Made by a program: the position numbers and the translations under genes. Positions 13,235 to 26,020 of a stretch of 32,000 nt of DNA are shown piece by piece. The notes beneath the pieces are model-generated. The model did not search any database. It saw nothing but the letters and a program-made list of their open reading frames with translations, and was not told where the DNA came from. Numbering within the stretch: the stretch's first letter is position 1; each line of letters opens with the position of its first letter. The stretch is from assembly GCA_048938295.1 (NCBI GenBank), contig JBHLMI010000005.1:60001-92000 (forward strand), read 5' to 3'. The DNA comes from Promethearchaeota archaeon (GTDB lineage Archaea > Asgardarchaeota > Hermodarchaeia > Hermodarchaeales > Hermodarchaeaceae).

Positions 13235-15253
13235 CTATTTCTTCACTGGTGGAAGGACATTAGCATAGCCATTCATGACTTCGAGACCATTTTGGTTGGT
13301 CACTGTAAAACTGAGACGGAGGAGGTTCTTTTCCGGAACTTTTTCTGTAACCTCGACTGTAGCCGTGATTTCATCACCAGGAAAGACTGGTGCCGTGAAA
13401 TTCACTTTCATGTTAAAGGCAAGGGTGCCCAAGCCCGGTAATTGCATACCAATTACTCGAGCAACCAAAGCGCCTCCAACTGGACCATGCGCAATACGAC
13501 GCCCGAACATCGTCGTGGCTGCATACTCATCATCCATGTGCAATGGATTATAATCACCAGACATTTTCGCGTACCATTCGATGTGCTCGTCAGTGACCTT
13601 CATCGATCCTTGAGCTTTTTCTCCAATCTTGATTTCATCCAAACTTTTCCCTAATACGAACTCTTTCTCAGCCTTTTTTGTTGGTGGGATCACAGTTTGC
13701 ACCCCTTCGAGTATTTGAGGAGTGAACCGAAACATTCGGGCAAATTTCAGCAGCAAGTCCATATCCTCAGTATCGATGCTAACCTGTTTCACCATCAAAG
13801 CCTGCATAGCATCAAGTTGCCCAAGGAGAATCTTCCGCCATGTCGTTGAATCAGTCTTCACCACCATAGTGGGTTTCGAAATTTCTTTTTTCTCTATTCG
13901 ACACTCTTGGTTATCGATGGACAGTAACCACGGAGCCTCATCTCCGAAAACGAATTGAATCTTCGCAGAGACCCCCTGAGCCCGATCAGCACGAAAGCCG
14001 TTGGGGATAGCGGCCATGAGAGTATCGAAATCAATCGATTCAAGTTTTGAGATGACAGATTTTGACACGTCTCCACGCTTATGTTCGATATAGATTTCGC
14101 GTTGAATGAGAAACCGCATGATTTCCGAGGTGCCCCCTCCAATAGTACCCAATCGGGCATCACGATAATATTGCTCAAGTGGATAGTAATCTTTGACGTA
14201 TCCCGCACCCCCACAGATTTGGATTGCTAAATCACAGACTTTAACTGCAGCCTCAGTTGCATGTAACTTTGCCATTGTAGCTTCCTTGGTGCAGGGAAGT
14301 CCTTTATCCACCATTCTGCCTGCAGAGATCGTCAAGAGTCGTGCAGCCCGCATCTGCAAAGCCATATCTGCAATCTTAAATGAAACGCCTTCAAAACGTG
14401 AAATCGGTTGATCAAATTGAATGCGTTGTTGAGAATACTCAACGGCGATTTCGAAGGGCTTTCGCATGCAGCCAAGGGCCTCTGCAGCGATACCGATGCG
14501 CTCTGAATCTAATTCGTCCATGAGAATGAGAAACCCTTGATTACGTTTTCCCAAGAGGTTTTCTTTGGGAATTTTTATGTTGTCAAATTTAATTTGCGAA
14601 ACATATACACCACCCCGACCCATGAGGGTGAAGTCCCGTTCAACGGAGAATCCTTTCCAAGCGGTTTCGATAATGAAGGCAGACATCCCACTTTTATTAT
14701 CTACAGTTGGATCTGTGACAGCAAAAACGACAATTTGATCAGCTATACTGCCGTTAGAGATGTAGCGTTTTTCCCCATTTAGAATCCAACATTGATCTTT
14801 CTCACTCCACTTGGCATTGGTTTCCATACCTGCCGTATCACTACCTACCGCAGGTTCAGTAATAGCCAAAGCCCCGATTTTTTCCCCTTTCGCTATAGGA
14901 ACAAGGTACTTCCGTTTCTGCGCCTCAGAACCAAATCGAAGAATTGGAATAGCACTGAGAGTGCAACTGGCACCGAACATCATCGTAGCCGATGGGGAAA
15001 CAACAGAGAGCTCTTCACCTGCAATCAATTGGTACATGAACGGTTTATCGGACCCACCATATTCCTCAGGAATAAGTAGACCAGCTAATCCAGCCCCGGC
15101 GAGAAGTTTGAAGAACTTTCTGAAATCGCATTTTCTTTCCTCAATTTGCTCACGGATTGGTAGTATCTTCTTTTCGATGAAATCCCGGGTTTGTTGACGA
15201 AACGCCAATTCATCAGGGGTGTAGAGCAATTCATCATCATTGATAACAATCAT
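13235..15253 (-). CDS. Acyl-CoA dehydrogenase + SCP2 lipid-carrier + MaoC/PhaJ (R)-enoyl-CoA hydratase fusion
   Basis: ACAD (aa ~1-390): GALAITEPAVGSD, WILNGEKRYISNG, ERIGIAA, RIQFDQPI, YYRDAR.GTIGGGTSEI. SCP2 (~408-510): AKIQFVF...PTMVVKTD..TWRKILLGQLDAMQALM. MaoC (~535-672): SGDYNPLHMD, IAHG, FTAPVFPGD. Confidence 0.9.
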   Translation of the reverse strand: MIVINDDELLYTPDELAFRQQTRDFIEKKILPIREQIEERKCDFRKFFKLLAGAGLAGLLIPEEYGGSDKPFMYQLIAGEELSVVSPSATMMFGASCTLSAIPILRFGSEAQKRKYLVPIAKGEKIGALAITEPAVGSDTAGMETNAKWSEKDQCWILNGEKRYISNGSIADQIVVFAVTDPTVDNKSGMSAFIIETAWKGFSVERDFTLMGRGGVYVSQIKFDNIKIPKENLLGKRNQGFLILMDELDSERIGIAAEALGCMRKPFEIAVEYSQQRIQFDQPISRFEGVSFKIADMALQMRAARLLTISAGRMVDKGLPCTKEATMAKLHATEAAVKVCDLAIQICGGAGYVKDYYPLEQYYRDARLGTIGGGTSEIMRFLIQREIYIEHKRGDVSKSVISKLESIDFDTLMAAIPNGFRADRAQGVSAKIQFVFGDEAPWLLSIDNQECRIEKKEISKPTMVVKTDSTTWRKILLGQLDAMQALMVKQVSIDTEDMDLLLKFARMFRFTPQILEGVQTVIPPTKKAEKEFVLGKSLDEIKIGEKAQGSMKVTDEHIEWYAKMSGDYNPLHMDDEYAATTMFGRRIAHGPVGGALVARVIGMQLPGLGTLAFNMKVNFTAPVFPGDEITATVEVTEKVPEKNLLRLSFTVTNQNGLEVMNGYANVLPPVKK

Positions 15254-18317: not shown

Positions 18318-18380
18318 AACTCGGCATATCATAACACGTCATCCTTATAGCCGGTGAGGAGAATCAATTAACGTCGTAGA

Positions 18381-18393
18381 AAATCAGTGATTT
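18381..18393. promoter_or_regulatory. Candidate operator: perfect palindrome AAATCA-G-TGATTT
   Basis: Read directly from the sequence. It lies about 32 nt downstream of a TTATA box (18345-18349) and about 45 nt upstream of the giant TrmB-like ATG. Confidence 0.3.
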
Positions 18394-18437
18394 GACGTCC
18401 TACGTGAGAGACCGAATCAGAATTGAAGTGAACCAAA

Positions 18438-21400
18438 ATGACCCCAAATGATGAGAAACCTCCAGCTGCTTTAAAAAAGGAAGAAAGTGCTGATCAAAGT
18501 GCAGCCTCCATTGAGATTTCGTCTGAGTTATTAACAGCGTTGCAGATGCCGTTTAAGCTCACGGAGTCTCAAAGTCGTGCTTATACCGTCTTGTTGGTAT
18601 TGGGTCAGTTGACTGCAGATGAGATCAGCAACTATTCGGGTATCCCGATGACCAAGATAAAAAGCACCATTAAAACCCTTGAAGAAAAGCAGCTAATCAA
18701 GCCCCTACCCGGTGTTGTCACACGCTACCGAGCATTTGCACCCTACAAGGAGCTTGCTGATGAAGTTCAATCGTTCACTAAAGACACTGAAAAATCTTGG
18801 AAAGAATTGCAAAAACTCCAGACACAAACGTTGAGCGAAATCCATGATGAGCTACAAACAATGACAAGGCAGACTCGCAGCGCCTTAGAGAACCTGAACG
18901 AACGGCAGGGAATTGCGTTAAACGAAGCGGCAATGGCTACTAACATTGTTTTAAGCAATGTTGCTGAAAACCTGCAGAAATCCTTGGATAACCTTACAAC
19001 GGAGAATGTGAATGATATCTCTGAACATACTACATCAATCCAACAGGCGCTCAGCACCCTCATTGATAAGGGAAGCACCCAACTAGATGCCGATCAACAA
19101 CTCGCCTTAGATGATGCATCAAAGGCAATGAGTGCCCACCAAGAAGAAACGAACCAATGGATTAGCTCCACATTGGAACAACTCTTAGATCAAACCTCTG
19201 GAAGTACCCAGCAAATTACAACCTGGTTAGATGACGCAAAGGCCCTTTTCGACCGTAACATTGATTTTAGCATGAAAAGCGTTGCGTCTGAAGTCACTTC
19301 ACAGAAAGTAGAAACCACGGATATCATCGAGGATACTGCGAATACCGTTACAGATGAAATTACAACCCACACTCAAGAGACACAAGGAGTATTAGCTGCT
19401 TTACAAAAGGAAACCAAACAGATTTTGACGAAACACCATCAGGAGCTCTCATCTCAAATACAAGATATGTGGGCACAGCAGACACAGGCTTTGGACAATG
19501 CAATTATGGACCTCGAAAAAACCGTTCAAAAGGAAAATCAGCAACTAATTCAGGAGAGGGATACAGCTGCTGCAACAATGAATACAAAAATAAAATCAGG
19601 GTGTGAAGACTCAATAAAAAGTATTGAAACGCTGTTTCAAGATTTAGAGAAAACTCAACAGCACGCTAGTTCCGAGTTACGACAACTCCACAAAGAAGCT
19701 GAAACGACCATTGCACAATGGCCTCCCTCATCACTGAATTTTTCACAATTCTCTAAAATCAAAACTACAACATCGAAATTAATCGAGCAAGTAAAAACTG
19801 AACAAAATCAGCTGCTGGACAGCACAAGCCAAGATTTAGCCACTGAAATGCAAGATACCTACGTAGCAAGGCTTCTCGAAGTCCAGAACCTATTACAGGC
19901 ACTCATTGAAGAAGGTAAGTCACAGAAAACCAAGCTTACGGAAAATTTCAAATCAATTGCTGATCAAGTTGGACGACGACTCAAGCGCCGATTGGCTATA
20001 ATACAGAAAACAGCCCAGACATTTCTATCGAATTTTCAGTCCAATGTGGATTCATTAGAAGCCCAATATCAGGCCCTTGGCAAACAAATGCAAAAACTTC
20101 TCAAAAACGAGGCGAACGCCACTCTTAAAGCCCTCGAAGAAACTGAAGTCCAAATCAAGGAGCGCACTGACACCCGATTACTCCAGGCACAAGACACCAT
20201 AAATCAGTCAGCGCAAGAGAACCTGGCAAAAGCCACGAAAGAACAAGAGGGCAGTCTAAAACAAGTGAAAACCTTCCAAGCAGCAATGAAAAACACAATT
20301 AAGGAAACAACTAAAGAATTACAGCAAGAATTTACCAAGCTTGAAGGTATCGTTAGGCAATATTCTGATGGAATTGAAAGTACAGCTGATAAGTTCCGTG
20401 CCGAACAAATTCTAAAAATCGAAACGGCAATTGAAAAATACCAACCTGCATTCACAAGGCTACAATCGACTCGTGATAATGCGATCACTCTCGCCATGAA
20501 TTCATTGGCAGCTCAGCTTACCAAACGACACCAAAACACTTTGAATGACTTCAACACCCTCATGTTAGAAAACATCCCAGTCTATGGCCTCTCAGCACTG
20601 GATTCCTACCAAACTACTTTTCAAAAAAATGCAACCGCTCTAGAAACTGAAGCCTTATCAGCAACAGAGTCTGCAATCCTGAAGCAACTCACTGCATCAG
20701 AACTCGAAACCATTGATACAGGGATTACAAAGGCTTTTAGCAAACAAATAGACGATGTTTCGGCGAGTCTCCAAGACTTCCTCGCAGGTCAACAAACACT
20801 GCAGGATTCACAATCGGAAACTGCATTAAATCTAGCACAAGATGAGTTGATCGAAGTATTCGAGCAGCAAATCTCCAAACACAACGAGATGCTCGCGAAA
20901 TCGTTCATAAGTAAACTAAAACCTGTTTTAAGCAAATGCAAAACCAAGATTTCAAAACAGATAAGCCGTGAAGAACAAATCAGCAAGATAATCCAGACAA
21001 CACACAAAAAGATCAAGACATCGCTCGCACCAATTGTAGCTAGACGTTCAAAGGCTATTCGTGATAAACTCGATGAAGAGCTCGAATCAACCTTTCAAAC
21101 TCTTATCTCTCAACTAGAAAAACAGACCAACCAAGAAGCTAAAGTTACAGAGATTATCGACTCAACAGCGACCAATCTAGAAAAGTTATCAGAAACCCAA
21201 TTCAAGAAAGAGCCCAAGGAAAACCTAAACGAACAAGTATCGAATCTCCTGGCAATTTTCACTGAATACCAATCAGCCATAGAACGTCAACACATGACTA
21301 ATACAAAAAATATCACCACTAAATTTCAAGATTTGTTTAAAGAAATGATAGAGACAAGTTATGTAGGGAGCTTGAAATCACAGATAAATAGCCTGCTCCA

Positions 21401-23816
21401 AAAAACTTGCATAGAAGTGTTAAGGCTCTATCGAACAAAAATTGCGGCAGAACAGACAACCGTGATAGAAAAAGCAGAGGCAGCCTATCAAACTGCATTA
21501 GATAAGCAACTCCGCACTCAAATGCAACCCAGAATCCATGAGTATTCAACCTCTGAAAGTCCAACAATCAACACTGTAATTGATGAAACAAAAACCGTTC
21601 TTGCCGAGACAACCAAAAATGCTGACGCAAACAGTCGAACTCTCATTGAAAAGTACTGGTTACCTCTGACAAAAATCATTGAGGAATATTCCTCTGTCGT
21701 AGTGGGTAACCTCACAGCTCTAAACACGGCTACCGGCTCTGCAGTCGACCAGACCACCATGAACGTCAACACGACCCTGACGAATTTCGAAGATGACTCA
21801 AACAAGCTATTGTCAGCTACGGTTCAAACCTTTGATCGAGAAAAAAGTGCAATCAACGAGCAAATCACACAAAGTTTCACCGAATTGCAGGAGGACTGCA
21901 TCGCGCAGCTTCAAGAAGCTCAAACCCTCCTTGAAACATTGAATACTGATATAGTGGCACGAAAGGCTACAACGACAGAAAAAATCGAAAGCATGGCTGG
22001 AGAAATTGATGCCACGACGACCTCACACTATGCAACCACCCGAAAAATCACCAATGCCTTTGTAGAGAACGTCCAAACTGAGTTAGCAACCCAGGAAGAA
22101 CGAGTTGAGAACCTCAAGAAAAATATCCAAGATCTAATCCACAAACAAGGAGTGGTCCTAAACGAGGGAGTGGATCGAATCCTAACACAACTGGTTGAGT
22201 TCTCGGAAACGCAAATACCAAAAATGCAAGGCATCATCGAAGAGAGCGGGCAAAATTACGTAAATCGCATCGAAGAGCAAAGAGCTAACACAGACCACCA
22301 CTTTGAAGAATTTGCACTCACTCTCTCGAAAGAACTAGACAAGTATACTTCAACATTACAACAAGAGCTAGAACAACTACAAACCATTACCTCGAAATTA
22401 GTTGAGCAAATCGGAAAAGCCACTGACACTATTGATACAGAAATTACCAAAGAAACTGATACCAGCAAAGTGAACCTACTCAACACGATTAACGCTCAAC
22501 AGCAGGTGTTGAATCAGGATATTAGCTCAACGTTTCAATCACTAGCCAAGAAAACACAACAAATTCAGGTCCAACTGCTAGATAAACTGAATCGTGTACG
22601 AGATGAAGGAAGAGAAGCACTTGACCAAGACCAGACCGAAATCACTACTGCCTTAGATACCACTCTTAACACGACAGTGAACAAAAAAGAACAAGCCATT
22701 CAAGCACAACTCGAAACACAGAAGGCAAAAAATCAAGCCCTGATCACTCAACTAGGCGAAACTCTGTCAGCCATTAGAGATAGCGTAACTACAACCTCAG
22801 ATAGTCTCCAAGAATCAGTAACATCTGCGTTGATGAACGTTCAAGCCGAACTCATAAAAATTCACTCGAATTCAAGGACACTAATAGAAGAAACGGATCA
22901 AACCCTTAGAACTGAGATAGGAGAGGAAGCTGAAAAGACTCTGCAAAGCCAAACCAAATCGATAGGTTTAACCGATTCTCGATTAAAGCGAGCAATACAG
23001 GATAGTATCCGCCGAACGAAGGAAAGCCTACAAAGTTTGAAAGGCACAGCATCAACTGATCTTCAGCAAAAGAACAAATCCTTTGTTGCATCCATCACTC
23101 AGACACTAGAGAACGTTAAAGATGGGCTAATGACTCAAACTCAGCAAACAGGTAGGCGTATTAGTCGTACCCTGAGCAAAGAACGCCAAACTCTGAAATT
23201 AGAATATCAGACTCTGGAAAAAGAAATTACTACACGAGCTAAGACCGCCGAGACAACAGCCGTAAATTCGCTGCAGCTCTTCTCGACACAAACTGAGCCA
23301 ACTCTAGACCGCTTGCGAACACAGGCAAGTCAAACGGAAGAAATTCTCATCGGTCTATGGGATACACTTACAAAACTAGAACCCGCTGAGGCTGAACGAA
23401 CTTGGCGTATTGTTACGTGCGAAGGGATTCAAAACCATTTGTTGGATATGTTGCGAAGAATTGACGAAACAATCACCTTGGTATATCCCTCGTTTGATGA
23501 GGTGCCGGTAACTGAGCTGAGTAAGATTCAACCACAAAGCCGTGTACATATAATTACCACGTTGGATAGAGAAAAACAGCTGGCTAGTGCTCAGAAGCTC
23601 TTACAACAAGGGAATATTCGAATCTGGGATAACCCGAACATGGAGTTCTACGGTGGATCCAGGGATGGAGAAGAAGTTCTCATCGCACCCACTTATGGAA
23701 ATCAAGGGGAAATCGTTGCTGTCGTCAGCGACCAAGCAAGTTACATTGCATTATTCAATCAAACGCTAGGACCACGGTGGGTTTCCGCATCGGAGGAAAT
23801 TCGTCTTCGAAGTTGA
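18438..23816 (+). CDS. Giant TrmB-like protein: N-terminal wHTH, about 1,550 aa helical/coiled-coil region, C-terminal TrmB effector-type (PLD-fold) domain
   Basis: FKLTESQSRAYTVLLVLGQLTADEISNYSGIPMTKIKSTIKTLEEKQLI...RYRAFAP is the TrmB wHTH. The centre is rich in Q/E/T/K/L and almost lacks Trp and Cys. C-terminal IQNHLLDMLRRIDETITL...RVHIITT...RDGEEVLIAP matches the TrmB C-domain pattern. Confidence 0.85.
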   Translation: MTPNDEKPPAALKKEESADQSAASIEISSELLTALQMPFKLTESQSRAYTVLLVLGQLTADEISNYSGIPMTKIKSTIKTLEEKQLIKPLPGVVTRYRAFAPYKELADEVQSFTKDTEKSWKELQKLQTQTLSEIHDELQTMTRQTRSALENLNERQGIALNEAAMATNIVLSNVAENLQKSLDNLTTENVNDISEHTTSIQQALSTLIDKGSTQLDADQQLALDDASKAMSAHQEETNQWISSTLEQLLDQTSGSTQQITTWLDDAKALFDRNIDFSMKSVASEVTSQKVETTDIIEDTANTVTDEITTHTQETQGVLAALQKETKQILTKHHQELSSQIQDMWAQQTQALDNAIMDLEKTVQKENQQLIQERDTAAATMNTKIKSGCEDSIKSIETLFQDLEKTQQHASSELRQLHKEAETTIAQWPPSSLNFSQFSKIKTTTSKLIEQVKTEQNQLLDSTSQDLATEMQDTYVARLLEVQNLLQALIEEGKSQKTKLTENFKSIADQVGRRLKRRLAIIQKTAQTFLSNFQSNVDSLEAQYQALGKQMQKLLKNEANATLKALEETEVQIKERTDTRLLQAQDTINQSAQENLAKATKEQEGSLKQVKTFQAAMKNTIKETTKELQQEFTKLEGIVRQYSDGIESTADKFRAEQILKIETAIEKYQPAFTRLQSTRDNAITLAMNSLAAQLTKRHQNTLNDFNTLMLENIPVYGLSALDSYQTTFQKNATALETEALSATESAILKQLTASELETIDTGITKAFSKQIDDVSASLQDFLAGQQTLQDSQSETALNLAQDELIEVFEQQISKHNEMLAKSFISKLKPVLSKCKTKISKQISREEQISKIIQTTHKKIKTSLAPIVARRSKAIRDKLDEELESTFQTLISQLEKQTNQEAKVTEIIDSTATNLEKLSETQFKKEPKENLNEQVSNLLAIFTEYQSAIERQHMTNTKNITTKFQDLFKEMIETSYVGSLKSQINSLLQKTCIEVLRLYRTKIAAEQTTVIEKAEAAYQTALDKQLRTQMQPRIHEYSTSESPTINTVIDETKTVLAETTKNADANSRTLIEKYWLPLTKIIEEYSSVVVGNLTALNTATGSAVDQTTMNVNTTLTNFEDDSNKLLSATVQTFDREKSAINEQITQSFTELQEDCIAQLQEAQTLLETLNTDIVARKATTTEKIESMAGEIDATTTSHYATTRKITNAFVENVQTELATQEERVENLKKNIQDLIHKQGVVLNEGVDRILTQLVEFSETQIPKMQGIIEESGQNYVNRIEEQRANTDHHFEEFALTLSKELDKYTSTLQQELEQLQTITSKLVEQIGKATDTIDTEITKETDTSKVNLLNTINAQQQVLNQDISSTFQSLAKKTQQIQVQLLDKLNRVRDEGREALDQDQTEITTALDTTLNTTVNKKEQAIQAQLETQKAKNQALITQLGETLSAIRDSVTTTSDSLQESVTSALMNVQAELIKIHSNSRTLIEETDQTLRTEIGEEAEKTLQSQTKSIGLTDSRLKRAIQDSIRRTKESLQSLKGTASTDLQQKNKSFVASITQTLENVKDGLMTQTQQTGRRISRTLSKERQTLKLEYQTLEKEITTRAKTAETTAVNSLQLFSTQTEPTLDRLRTQASQTEEILIGLWDTLTKLEPAEAERTWRIVTCEGIQNHLLDMLRRIDETITLVYPSFDEVPVTELSKIQPQSRVHIITTLDREKQLASAQKLLQQGNIRIWDNPNMEFYGGSRDGEEVLIAPTYGNQGEIVAVVSDQASYIALFNQTLGPRWVSASEEIRLRS

Positions 23817-23840: not shown

Positions 23841-25583
23841 CTATTCGGTGCGACCAACCCGGTTGGTCGCAGCCTTCCGGTGGAACTGAGAATTGTAGAG
23901 TTCTTGTACCCGGTGGATGGTGTCAGCTTCATTCGGATCTTTATCGTACCGTAGCCGTTTAATTCGTGCGAAGCGAAGCGCCATGCCGGACTTGTACGTA
24001 GGACTTTTTTGAATCTCATCATATTCAACTTCAACCACAATCCGTGGATGTACTTTGACAACTCCACCACGTTGTTCAATCTTAAGATCCAAGAGACGTT
24101 GGGTAATCTCCACAAATTCTGCATCTGTTAGTCCCTTGAAGGTTTTCCCAAGCATGTGAAACTCTCCAGTTTCAGGATCCTGCGCGGCAAGGTGATAATC
24201 ACTTAGCCATTTATGCCGTCGCCCAGTCCCCCATTCAGCTGCAATAATCACCAGGTCAAGGGTCTCCATACTTTGTTTAACCTTTAACCAAGCCTTTCCT
24301 CGTATACCTGGCTGATACCTACTGTCCAGACGTTTCGCAACTAGACCCTCATGGCCAGCCTCGATGGCTTTCTCAAAAAAGGATTGGGCTTTATTGGAAT
24401 CGGAGGTCACGAGTTGTTCTACCAATGGAATTGCCCCACTAACTTTCTCAAGGAGCTCCCGTCGGGATTGATACGGTGAATCGATGAGGACATTCCCTTC
24501 TTCCATTAACAGGTCAAACAAGTACAAGGTTACAGGGATCTCAGCAATCATTTCTTCAACTTTCCTAACTCGCCGGAACCGTCGCATTAGATGTTGAAAG
24601 GGATGTGGACGTCCATCTGGCCCCTCTGCAAGCACCTCTCCTTCAAGGATACAACTTTGCAAACTAACCTGATTGCCAACCAAATCTACTAGATCAGGAA
24701 GACTTGTCGTAACATCGGTCAATCGGCGACTGTAAATACGTATCTGTGTTTGGTGATTTTCTCGTTGTAGGTGAATCTGAACACGGGCGCCATCCAGCTT
24801 CATTTCAAAAGCTGATGTTCCATCATGGATTTTTAGGGCATCTTCGACATCTTCGGCTTGGGCAGCTAACATAGGAAGCAATGGAACGAACGCACAAAGC
24901 TTCACATTTTTCAATCCTTCAGAACCCTGATGGAAAGCTGTCCTTGCTACTTGACCAATATTTCCGGTAAGCATATTCGCGCGGCGAACCAGGTCCAGAG
25001 GTATATTCAGCTTTCGTGCAATGGCACTTTCTAGCATTCCAGCACTGAAACCTATCCGTTGATCCCCCACAAGCAGTTTTGTGATATACTTAGCTTCTAG
25101 CGGTTTAGCCCGCGTAAATAAGGCTCGGAGTAATGCGGTTTTTCGTTTTCGGGACCCTGAACCTTGTGCATCTGCGATTTCGGTAAAAGTAGAATGGACA
25201 TCTTGTATTGTCAAAGGCGTTGTAAACAATGTCGATTGTCGAATAGTTCCTGAGCGAAGATACAACTGGTATACAACTTCGCCAATATCCCCTGATTGTG
25301 CAAAGAGTTCATTTAACAATTGACGCGGGGGATGCAGAAGCTCCTGGAGAATCTGATTGAGTGCTTTCCAATCAAGAGCCAACGTCCGTTGGCTAGTCCG
25401 TGGAAAAGGACGACCAATAAGGAGTAAGGTCCCAATTTCAGTTTCCTCAACCGATAAATTCGCTAGGAACGTCCCAGCCATATCCATTTTCTCTAAACGA
25501 CTCGAGGTTCCCATAATAGCCTCAGAAACTTCTGCCAAGACCTGAAATGGAGTTGCTGGATTAGCAGCCGCCTTAGACATCAA
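23841..25583 (-). CDS. lig: ATP-dependent DNA ligase (archaeal LigI type)
   Basis: Motif I EMKLDGARVQIH, III ILEGEV, IIIa YLFDLL, IV EGLVAK, V WLKVK, VI LRFARIKRLRYDK. Confidence 0.95.
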   Translation of the reverse strand: MMSKAAANPATPFQVLAEVSEAIMGTSSRLEKMDMAGTFLANLSVEETEIGTLLLIGRPFPRTSQRTLALDWKALNQILQELLHPPRQLLNELFAQSGDIGEVVYQLYLRSGTIRQSTLFTTPLTIQDVHSTFTEIADAQGSGSRKRKTALLRALFTRAKPLEAKYITKLLVGDQRIGFSAGMLESAIARKLNIPLDLVRRANMLTGNIGQVARTAFHQGSEGLKNVKLCAFVPLLPMLAAQAEDVEDALKIHDGTSAFEMKLDGARVQIHLQRENHQTQIRIYSRRLTDVTTSLPDLVDLVGNQVSLQSCILEGEVLAEGPDGRPHPFQHLMRRFRRVRKVEEMIAEIPVTLYLFDLLMEEGNVLIDSPYQSRRELLEKVSGAIPLVEQLVTSDSNKAQSFFEKAIEAGHEGLVAKRLDSRYQPGIRGKAWLKVKQSMETLDLVIIAAEWGTGRRHKWLSDYHLAAQDPETGEFHMLGKTFKGLTDAEFVEITQRLLDLKIEQRGGVVKVHPRIVVEVEYDEIQKSPTYKSGMALRFARIKRLRYDKDPNEADTIHRVQELYNSQFHRKAATNRVGRTE

Positions 25584-25630: not shown

Positions 25631-25681
25631 GTGTGCTTCATTACATCCATGATAACTTCCAATTACGCAGGTTCTGAAAAA

Positions 25682-26020
25682 ATGAAAGTCCATGAATTAA
25701 CTTCTGCATCCCGAAGTGTCAACATCCGATTGCGTATCCTTTCCTTGGAGCCCGTTCGAGATGTGGAGACACGCTATGGTAAAGCCCGAGTGGCCACCGC
25801 ACAAGCGGGTGACGAAACCGGTACGATCAAGCTCTCATTGTGGAACGATGATATTGACATGATCGATGAAGGGGCCATTGTTGAAGTTGAAAACGGGTTC
25901 ATCAAAACGTTTCGCGGGGAAATGGAACTATCCGCAGGACGGTATGGAACCATCGCCCTAGTTGATGATCCAAAGTTTCCTTCACGGGAAGAAATTATGA
26001 GCAAACATCCTGGCGAATAG
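25682..26020 (+). CDS. ssb: Single-OB-fold single-stranded DNA-binding protein (crenarchaeal SSB / RPA-like)
   Basis: VNIRLRILSL...VATAQAGDETGTIKLSLWND...VEVENGFIKTFRGEMELSAGRYG. ATG 25682 is preferred. Confidence 0.88.
   Translation: MKVHELTSASRSVNIRLRILSLEPVRDVETRYGKARVATAQAGDETGTIKLSLWNDDIDMIDEGAIVEVENGFIKTFRGEMELSAGRYGTIALVDDPKFPSREEIMSKHPGE

Follow-up and report, generated by a model that had tools for sequence, protein, structure and literature searches.

Among archaeal regulators of the TrmB family, TrmBL2 lacks the sugar-binding subdomain and consists of a winged helix, a dimerisation (amphipathic) helix and a phospholipase D (PLD)-like domain (PMC4877046). Both TrmB and TrmBL2 dimerise via the helix that follows the winged helix, and their heads use paired winged helices (PMC4877046). 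TrmBL2 is mainly a chromatin protein that coats DNA; at high occupancy its binding is largely sequence-independent, and the stiff filaments that it forms can stall SMC (PMC4877046, PMC11840125). In this study, we analysed a window of 32,000 nucleotides from a Promethearchaeota archaeon (GenBank assembly GCA_048938295.1, contig JBHLMI010000005.1, positions 60,001 to 92,000; all coordinates below are those of this whole stretch unless a locus is named), which contains an open reading frame (ORF) for a giant protein of 1792 amino acids (aa) with TrmBL2-like domains at its two ends and a very long helical rod predicted between them. The organism belongs to the Asgard archaea, whose nucleoid organisation is almost unknown beyond histones.

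The giant protein has the same domain order as TrmBL2 (TK0471 / PF0496; PDB entries 5bpd, 5box, 5bpi and 5bqt), the Thermococcales chromatin protein, which is also the best PDB match for both of its ends, and a D-x-EEV motif is common to the two. They differ greatly in size: TrmBL2 has ~264 aa and a linker helix of ~35 residues, whereas ~1,510 residues are inserted in the giant protein, and the C-terminal domains are only 16-19% identical. TrmBL2 is euryarchaeal and, as a tetramer, covers DNA in stiff filaments, whereas all named members of the giant protein's family are Asgard. TrmB and TrmBL1 (2f5t, 3qph; PF01978 + PF11495) share the winged helix and the first effector subdomain with the giant protein, but they possess a sugar-binding second subdomain that is missing here, and the giant protein is ~5 times longer.

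For the rod, the nearest likenesses lie outside the TrmB family. The arms of SMC, Rad50 and MukB are long antiparallel coiled coils of conserved length that join N- and C-terminal parts as a DNA-binding head and end in a distinct apical region, a plan that the giant protein is predicted to follow. Those proteins have an ABC ATPase, a hinge or zinc hook and mainly heptad periodicity, whereas the giant protein has none of these and is hendecad; there is no sequence relationship, and the comparison is by analogy only. Hendecad coiled coils (tetrabrachion, the A/V-ATPase peripheral stalk) and amphipathic 11-mer proteins such as apolipoprotein A-I, alpha-synuclein and the perilipins have the 11/3 hydrophobic periodicity and the a/d/e/h pattern in common with the rod. 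In contrast to these, the giant rod keeps its registers far longer (300-450 residues), is predicted to pair antiparallel, and is without the broad hydrophobic face of the lipid-binding type and without Pro punctuation. Sso10a of Sulfolobus combines a winged helix with an antiparallel coiled-coil rod and has an architectural or bridging function on DNA; it differs in being ~95 aa long with a ~5 nm rod, in having no PLD-like domain and in lying outside the TrmB family.

Terminal domains

A preliminary description of this locus had proposed a TrmB-family protein with both terminal domains retained on either side of a giant helical insert, and this proposal is upheld. Residues 36-102 score 48.1 bits on PF01978 (cut-off 25.6), a match that was recovered again in the genome search, and residues 31-133 find TrmBL2 5bpd as their best PDB match (E=3e-7), with TrmB 3qph at 1e-6. 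At the other end, no true match came from searching Pfam or PDB sequences with the last 193 aa alone or with a shallow profile; peroxiredoxins, which came up in these searches at chance level, were rejected as relatives of the domain. The first eleven PDB matches of a 100-sequence profile include FAM83B, which has a PLD-like fold, as well as two entries of TrmB and three of TrmBL2, all at marginal E-values (0.03-0.5 for TrmBL2 and TrmB). Several family members match PF11495 (Regulator_TrmB) from position 3 to ~122-138 of 233, and one of them, P0102, exceeds the cut-off with 29.6 bits.

Structure prediction agrees with these matches. From the 100-sequence alignment, AlphaFold2 modelled the C-terminal domain with a predicted local distance difference test score (pLDDT) of 94.3, superseding a run on 23 close orthologs only that was unusable (pLDDT 55.5). 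The first eight Foldseek matches of this model are all TrmBL2 chains (E 7e-9 to 4e-7), followed by TrmB 2f5t, NucT, FAM83 and TrmB 3qph, and then by Nuc, Zucchini, F13 and PLD3; the part of 2f5t that the model overlays (E 5e-7, root-mean-square deviation 3.0 Å) is the first effector subdomain. TrmB profiles are thus matched directly at the N-terminal end, and at the C-terminal end by way of the family's PF11495 matches and the fold model. The HKD motif of catalytic phospholipase D (HxK(x)4D) was not found in the C-terminal domain, and H1704 is not conserved across the wider family. Among 100 diverse members, E1746 is present in all, R1674, P1684, R1742 and D1743 in 88-99%, and N1726 in 81%.

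The sugar-binding subdomain (PF11495 ~140-233) is missing, as the protein ends ~150 residues into the domain and the model contains no extra subdomain. The TrmB identity given earlier therefore stands at the level of the family, but not as a sugar-sensing TrmB: the protein is a member of the TrmB family closest to TrmBL2. The existing annotation 'sugar-specific regulator TrmB' is misleading for the same reason. Alignments of both ends, mapped onto TrmBL2, locate the insert where its dimerisation helix ends, between the equivalents of residues ~107 and ~116.

The ORF itself has an ATG start, 1792 codons and a stop, with no internal stops. A mis-joined chimera, a concern raised in the preliminary description, is excluded because >20 full-length orthologs occur in separate assemblies and because metagenome contigs from four sediment DNA runs tile the gene with no joints, indels or loose ends; these four runs belong to one study that may include the source sample and do not count as independent support.

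The rod and the pairing of its arms

Alignment-averaged hydrophobicity over ~1,500 residues has a single strong period of 3.65-3.67 (11/3), and power at 3.5 is 5-100x below that at 11/3 in most windows. The hendecad phase is near-constant over residues 112-425 and ~1180-1640, the register holding for 300-450 residues at a time. When residues are folded modulo 11, an a/d/e/h core appears in which two positions are strongly and two partly hydrophobic, the remaining positions being occupied by Thr, Gln, Ser, Glu and Lys; strong hydrophobicity is limited to ~2-2.5 positions in 11. Pro makes up 0.8% of the rod, and stretches of 359, 326 and 239 residues contain none; the centre is Pro-punctuated. 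From the scarcity of Pro and the hydrophobic period we infer that the rod is helical. The best period lies between 3.64 and 3.70 in 66 of 69 full-length family representatives. It is strongly supported by these sequence patterns that the middle of the protein (~108-1640) forms a hendecad (11/3) coiled coil, neither heptad nor apolipoprotein-like.

The absence of a transmembrane segment and of Walker motifs, noted previously, was borne out: no 19-residue window reaches a Kyte-Doolittle value of 1.6, neither a Walker B motif nor a Pfam ATPase match was found, and the single Walker A pattern match (ALIEEGKS, residue 488) is not kept in orthologs. A zinc hook (no CxxC) and a hinge domain were likewise not found. 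The rod carries a net charge of -56, with two conserved basic patches at residues 494-553 and 821-880, the latter at the predicted tip; rods are acidic across the family (median net charge -32).

Three agreeing lines of evidence, mirrored conservation, covariation and central deletions in relatives, strongly support an antiparallel pairing of the two arms of this rod. Smoothed conservation of residues 110-700 correlates with that of the C-terminal arm read backwards, and of 440 offsets the best is i+j=1745-1748 (r 0.64-0.76), where the domain boundaries predict 1745 (105+1640). Only 0.04% of phase-randomised surrogates reach this peak, no parallel offset comes near it, and it stays at 1746-1750 after removal of 100 head-proximal residues. 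Covariation was measured as mutual information, corrected by the average product, summed along anti-diagonals (i+j=S) and smoothed; the top ten of ~900 values all fall at S=1738-1747 (z 3.9-4.4). In non-overlapping sub-ranges, the maxima lie at S=1746 for residues 110-270 and 270-425 and at S=1739 for residues 445-580, the 7-residue shift in register falling across an invariant Trp-Pro-Pro at residues 428-430. The signal holds regardless of column entropy, and the positive control, intra-helix contacts at i,i+3 and i,i+4, was detected. Lastly, a 1408-aa relative is without residues 668-1076 (sum 1744) and 1522-aa relatives are without ~270 residues inside 703-1061; in both cases the two arms stay colinear, and a Gly/Pro-containing, turn-like motif near the middle of the 1408-aa relative marks its one sharp break in register.

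Collectively, there is strong support for a predicted pairing of the two arms, outgoing (108 to ~700) and returning (~1046 to 1640), with residue i opposite ~1746-i, and for a change of this register to 1739-i beyond the Trp-Pro-Pro break. Two further results add little. The mirror-paired prolines 670/1076 and 714/1031 fit the axis, but we treat them as weak evidence, the overall test giving P = 0.09 and a periodic array of repeats having mirror symmetry of its own. A complex prediction of residues 30-430 with 1320-1792 scored 0.14, below the 0.32 mark, which is no answer and evidence neither way. The 21 full-length orthologs align in 1797 columns, of which only four within residues 105-1640 are gapped, in 1-3 sequences each; we attribute this near-absence of gained or lost residues to the need for the two arms to stay in register.

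The rod also contains an internal duplication, residues 449-711 corresponding to 1129-1390 (nucleotides 21822-22607 for the second copy), which hhalign aligns over 262 columns with one 1-residue gap at 20% identity (probability 99.5, E 3e-23); between arm A (residues 108-427) and its partner arm, the hhalign probability is only 85. Since residues 445-580 are predicted to pair with ~1159-1294, each copy would largely pack on its homologous counterpart, much as in an antiparallel homodimer fused into one chain. Repeats of ~55 residues (five hendecads) make up the centre (~660-1045); self-similarity appears there at offsets of 55, 220 and 275, and the motif QTxREKQI…LP is present twice (residues 841-863 and 896-918). 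As shorter relatives lack this repeat array, it presumably lengthens the tip in particular lineages only. With 0.15 nm for each residue, the arms, paired, would measure ~84 nm to residue 668 and ~115 nm to the mirror centre near residue 873.

Proposed architecture and alternative explanations

We propose that the giant protein is a TrmBL2-type architectural DNA-binding protein with a hairpin rod. The structural part of this statement is probable and we hold it with good confidence; the functional part, that it acts as an architectural nucleoid protein, is tentative and rather doubtful, and the statement as a whole has, in our view, about an even chance of being right. The winged helix and the PLD-like domain would be two halves of one TrmBL2-like head, brought together at the base of a rod in which the ~35-residue joining helix of TrmBL2 has been replaced by a ~1,540-residue hendecad coiled coil. 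The rod would be a straight intramolecular hairpin, as in the arms of SMC and Rad50, lacking the ATPase. Its length would be ~85 nm measured up to where the central repeats begin, and ~115 nm should these repeats prolong it. The head may bind DNA as TrmBL2 does, with paired winged helices in a dimer or higher oligomer, while the strongly acidic rod, repelled by DNA, would project outward. Its tip, which is basic and repeat-built in this orthogroup, may contact a second partner: another DNA segment, another rod tip or the membrane. Rather than sensing sugars, such a protein might keep nucleoid elements apart, or link them, at a distance characteristic of each lineage.

Several findings weigh against this proposal. 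The register data fit a one-chain hairpin or an antiparallel pair of chains alike. The pair would be a homodimer of opposite-running extended chains, ~230 nm long: a double-headed, fixed-length DNA-DNA bridge resembling a giant Sso10a, with the winged helix of one chain beside the C-terminal domain of the other at each end. Such a dimer would account equally well for mirrored conservation and anti-diagonal covariation and would suit the fairly continuous hendecad phase over residues 849-893, and winged-helix proteins of the Sso10a type with an antiparallel coiled coil are known. Covariation signal was found neither for residues 580-700 nor for the centre, and the turn of the 1408-aa relative lies ~20 residues before the mirror centre. 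P0038, a 1122-aa metagenome protein from ENA, lacks the centre together with ~351 residues of the return arm (1139-1489), a one-sided deletion that a simple hairpin leaves unexplained and that may reflect an assembly artefact or a different fold. A basic tip could not be upheld as a general feature of the family, the most basic window being evenly spread over 73 members, and is confined to this orthogroup; moreover, no conserved neighbour gene or partner accompanies the family phylum-wide (20 loci of other lineages). Even so, the hairpin is the most likely topology, because the centre is irregular, Pro-punctuated and dispensable in relatives and because a hairpin rebuilds a TrmBL2-like head from a single chain. 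An extended dimer is also at odds with the single sharp break near the middle of the 1408-aa relative, and with one head per end it would forgo the paired winged helices of the TrmB family unless higher oligomers formed; we consider it unlikely. Of the two topologies offered in the preliminary description, the folded-back one of ~115 nm is favoured over the extended one of ~230 nm, on the basis of mirrored conservation, covariation and the deletions in relatives. A parallel two-stranded tether holding the DNA-binding and PLD-like domains ~230 nm apart, while the simplest extension of the dimerisation helix that follows the winged helix in TrmB and TrmBL2, is very improbable: no parallel offset rivals the anti-diagonal signal in conservation or covariation, and neither the equal lengths of the arms nor central deletions with colinear arms would be explained.

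Other explanations concern function. The roles of tether, spacer or tension sensor suggested in the preliminary description are conjectural. Membership of the TrmB family, together with a conserved inverted repeat just 3' of the TATA box belonging to the gene, the usual site of action of archaeal repressors, would suit an ordinary sequence-specific transcription regulator, possibly autoregulating, in which the rod serves only for oligomerisation or sensing. We think this quite improbable, given that the effector-sugar-binding domain is absent, that TrmBL2, to which it is most closely related, serves chiefly in chromatin, and that a 1,540-residue rod with near-zero tolerance of indels, maintained phylum-wide in 1-7 copies per genome, is a large investment for a regulator. 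The suggestion of an apolipoprotein-like lipid-binding bundle, here extended to perilipin- or late embryogenesis abundant (LEA)-like amphipathic proteins that couple membrane or lipid state to DNA, has fared poorly and now seems highly unlikely. It draws on the 11-residue periodicity that apolipoproteins also have and on weak PF01442 matches in the giant protein and its relatives, but that of the giant protein, 24.7 bits against a cut-off of 90, is ascribed to the 11-residue rhythm alone. Prolines do not punctuate 11- or 22-mers, the hydrophobic seam at a/d/e/h is narrow with few strongly hydrophobic positions, and the lipid-metabolism genes nearby are kept in close relatives only. Covariation of the arms in a fixed register and the absence of indels argue instead for defined helix-helix packing.

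If the proposed architectural role is correct, this DNA-binding protein, present in nearly all Asgard genomes sampled, would be a new element of chromatin or cell architecture, with a stiff rod that reaches across a considerable part of the cell's diameter and keeps a constant length within each lineage. With no indels over ~1,500 residues at 30% identity, it also offers a clean natural case of an antiparallel coiled coil constraining evolution. A broader idea is that a phylum-wide and previously undescribed set of ATPase-less, SMC/Rad50-like rods on a TrmBL2-type head sets distances in the cell, such as DNA-DNA or DNA-envelope spacing, by its strictly maintained, lineage-specific lengths (~20 to 130 nm), and so serves as a passive scaffold or ruler for chromatin in the closest prokaryotic relatives of eukaryotes; this is speculative and on present evidence unlikely.

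Orthologs, family and distribution

A word-indexed search of ~5.8 billion proteins returned 30 relatives. As the preliminary description had suggested, length variation among orthologs was checked: complete ones, found in many separate assemblies (JGI, ENA, NCBI, Logan) and at identities down to 30%, measure 1788-1795 aa within the orthogroup, and lengths are lineage-specific, from 323 to 1907 aa, family-wide. Genome records of the orthogroup are mostly titled Candidatus Hermodarchaeota, others Promethearchaeota, Odinarchaeota or 'archaeon'. The C-domain profile, searched against 1.84 billion representative proteins, recovered 317 proteins in which the domain lies nearly always at the extreme C-terminus; both the winged helix and the C-terminal domain are present in ~100 retrieved proteins, which span the lengths given above. 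All named members are Asgard (Hermod-, Hod-, Thor-, Odin- or Lokiarchaeota, or Promethearchaeota), annotated as hypothetical, as helix-turn-helix-domain proteins or with the sugar-specific name, and our literature search found no paper describing a family of giant-rod TrmBL2-like proteins.

At the level of genomes, the C-terminal domain occurs in 196 of the 201 sampled from the window's phylum (Asgard), each of them having 1-7 matches. Within the same genus, frames measure 1794-1811 aa, and lengths typical of other lineages are ~760, 838, 1030, 1090-1150, 1310, 1545 and 1916 aa, with one open frame of 2092 aa. The source genome has a second family member of 635 aa on another contig (G000:C5:~47400-49338, locus L013), with a weak TrmB winged helix at C5:47539-47703 and the C-terminal domain at 48883-49338 (E 1e-26). 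In many matches from one Asgard family (f9), and in a few other genomes, exactly one in-frame TAA or TAG lies inside the C-terminal domain (for example, G146:C2:167936-168427 and G170:C30:3088-3579); either the profile overruns a natural stop or the lineage reads a stop codon through.

Sequence features of the gene

Features of the gene and its upstream region are collected in Table 1. The block around the TATA-like box is kept in 11 orthologous upstream regions, including that of the 30%-identity ortholog L011, in which the inverted repeat and the GTGA motif are conserved as well. With the TATA-like box, the giant gene carries a conserved promoter of its own; the inverted repeat is a candidate operator for autoregulation or a candidate leader hairpin. 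Within the protein, the start of arm A corresponds to the TrmBL2 dimerisation helix.

Table 1. Upstream elements and protein regions of the giant ORF, in coordinates of the window.
Feature	Position	Strand	Basis
TATA-like box CCTTATAG, conserved flanks, ~90 nt 5' of ATG	18343..18350	+	upstream alignment
Short inverted repeat (…CGTAG, ~20 nt, CTACG…) between TATA box and ATG, in presumed 5' leader	18371..18405	+	upstream alignment
Shine-Dalgarno-like GTGA motif, 7-13 nt 5' of ATG	18425..18431	+	invariant in upstream alignment
Whole ORF, 1792 aa plus stop	18438..23816	+	ORF call; orthologs 1788-1795 aa
TrmB winged helix-turn-helix, residues 36-102	18543..18743	+	Pfam PF01978; best PDB match TrmBL2
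Arm A, residues 108-427, hendecad register almost without breaks	18759..19718	+	phase map; a/d/e/h core; covaries with 1321-1636 at i+j=1746
Invariant Trp-Pro-Pro break, residues 428-430	19719..19727	+	invariant columns; phase jump; S 1746 to 1739
Arm B, residues 449-711, copy 1 of internal duplication	19782..20570	+	hhalign against 1129-1390; covariation of 445-580 at S=1739
Central irregular region, residues 668-1076, predicted turn near 873	20439..21665	+	pairwise gaps, self-similarity, phase breaks
Basic patch at predicted tip, residues 821-880	20898..21077	+	net +9.3, ortholog average
Arm C, residues 1077-1640, predicted return strand, register stable for ~450 residues	21666..23357	+	phase map, core pattern, conservation, covariation
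C-terminal TrmBL2/TrmB-type PLD-like domain, residues 1641-1792	23358..23813	+	AlphaFold2, Foldseek, residue counts

Gene neighbourhood

The neighbours of the giant gene in the window encode an acyl-CoA dehydrogenase-SCP2-MaoC fusion, an aldehyde dehydrogenase, a class-V aminotransferase, a DNA ligase, an SSB (single-stranded DNA-binding protein)-like protein with an oligonucleotide/oligosaccharide-binding (OB) fold and a DedA/VTT protein. Close relatives retain all of these and have an RNase HII gene just downstream. In the 20 loci of other Asgard lineages, none of them lies beside a family member and no other neighbour recurs. We therefore rejected the neighbourhood as functional evidence, synteny being confined to close relatives.

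Among these genes, the acyl-CoA dehydrogenase fusion (13235-15253, - strand, 672 aa) joins complete N-terminal, middle and C-terminal dehydrogenase domains to an SCP2 sterol-carrier domain and a MaoC-like hydratase, the last of which is lacking in the 532-aa ortholog of locus L011. The syntenic block downstream of the giant gene in loci L009 and L011 holds a conserved 534-aa protein without Pfam matches, and a few genes downstream of the giant gene these loci encode an Arf/Ras-type small GTPase of 289 aa (L009:19194-20063, L011:19924-20793). The gene for the SSB-like OB-fold protein (25631-26020, + strand) adjoins that of the convergent ATP-dependent DNA ligase (23841-25583, - strand); with RNase HII, nearby in the orthologous loci, they form a small lagging-strand maturation cluster that is kept within the Hermodarchaeota-like clade only.

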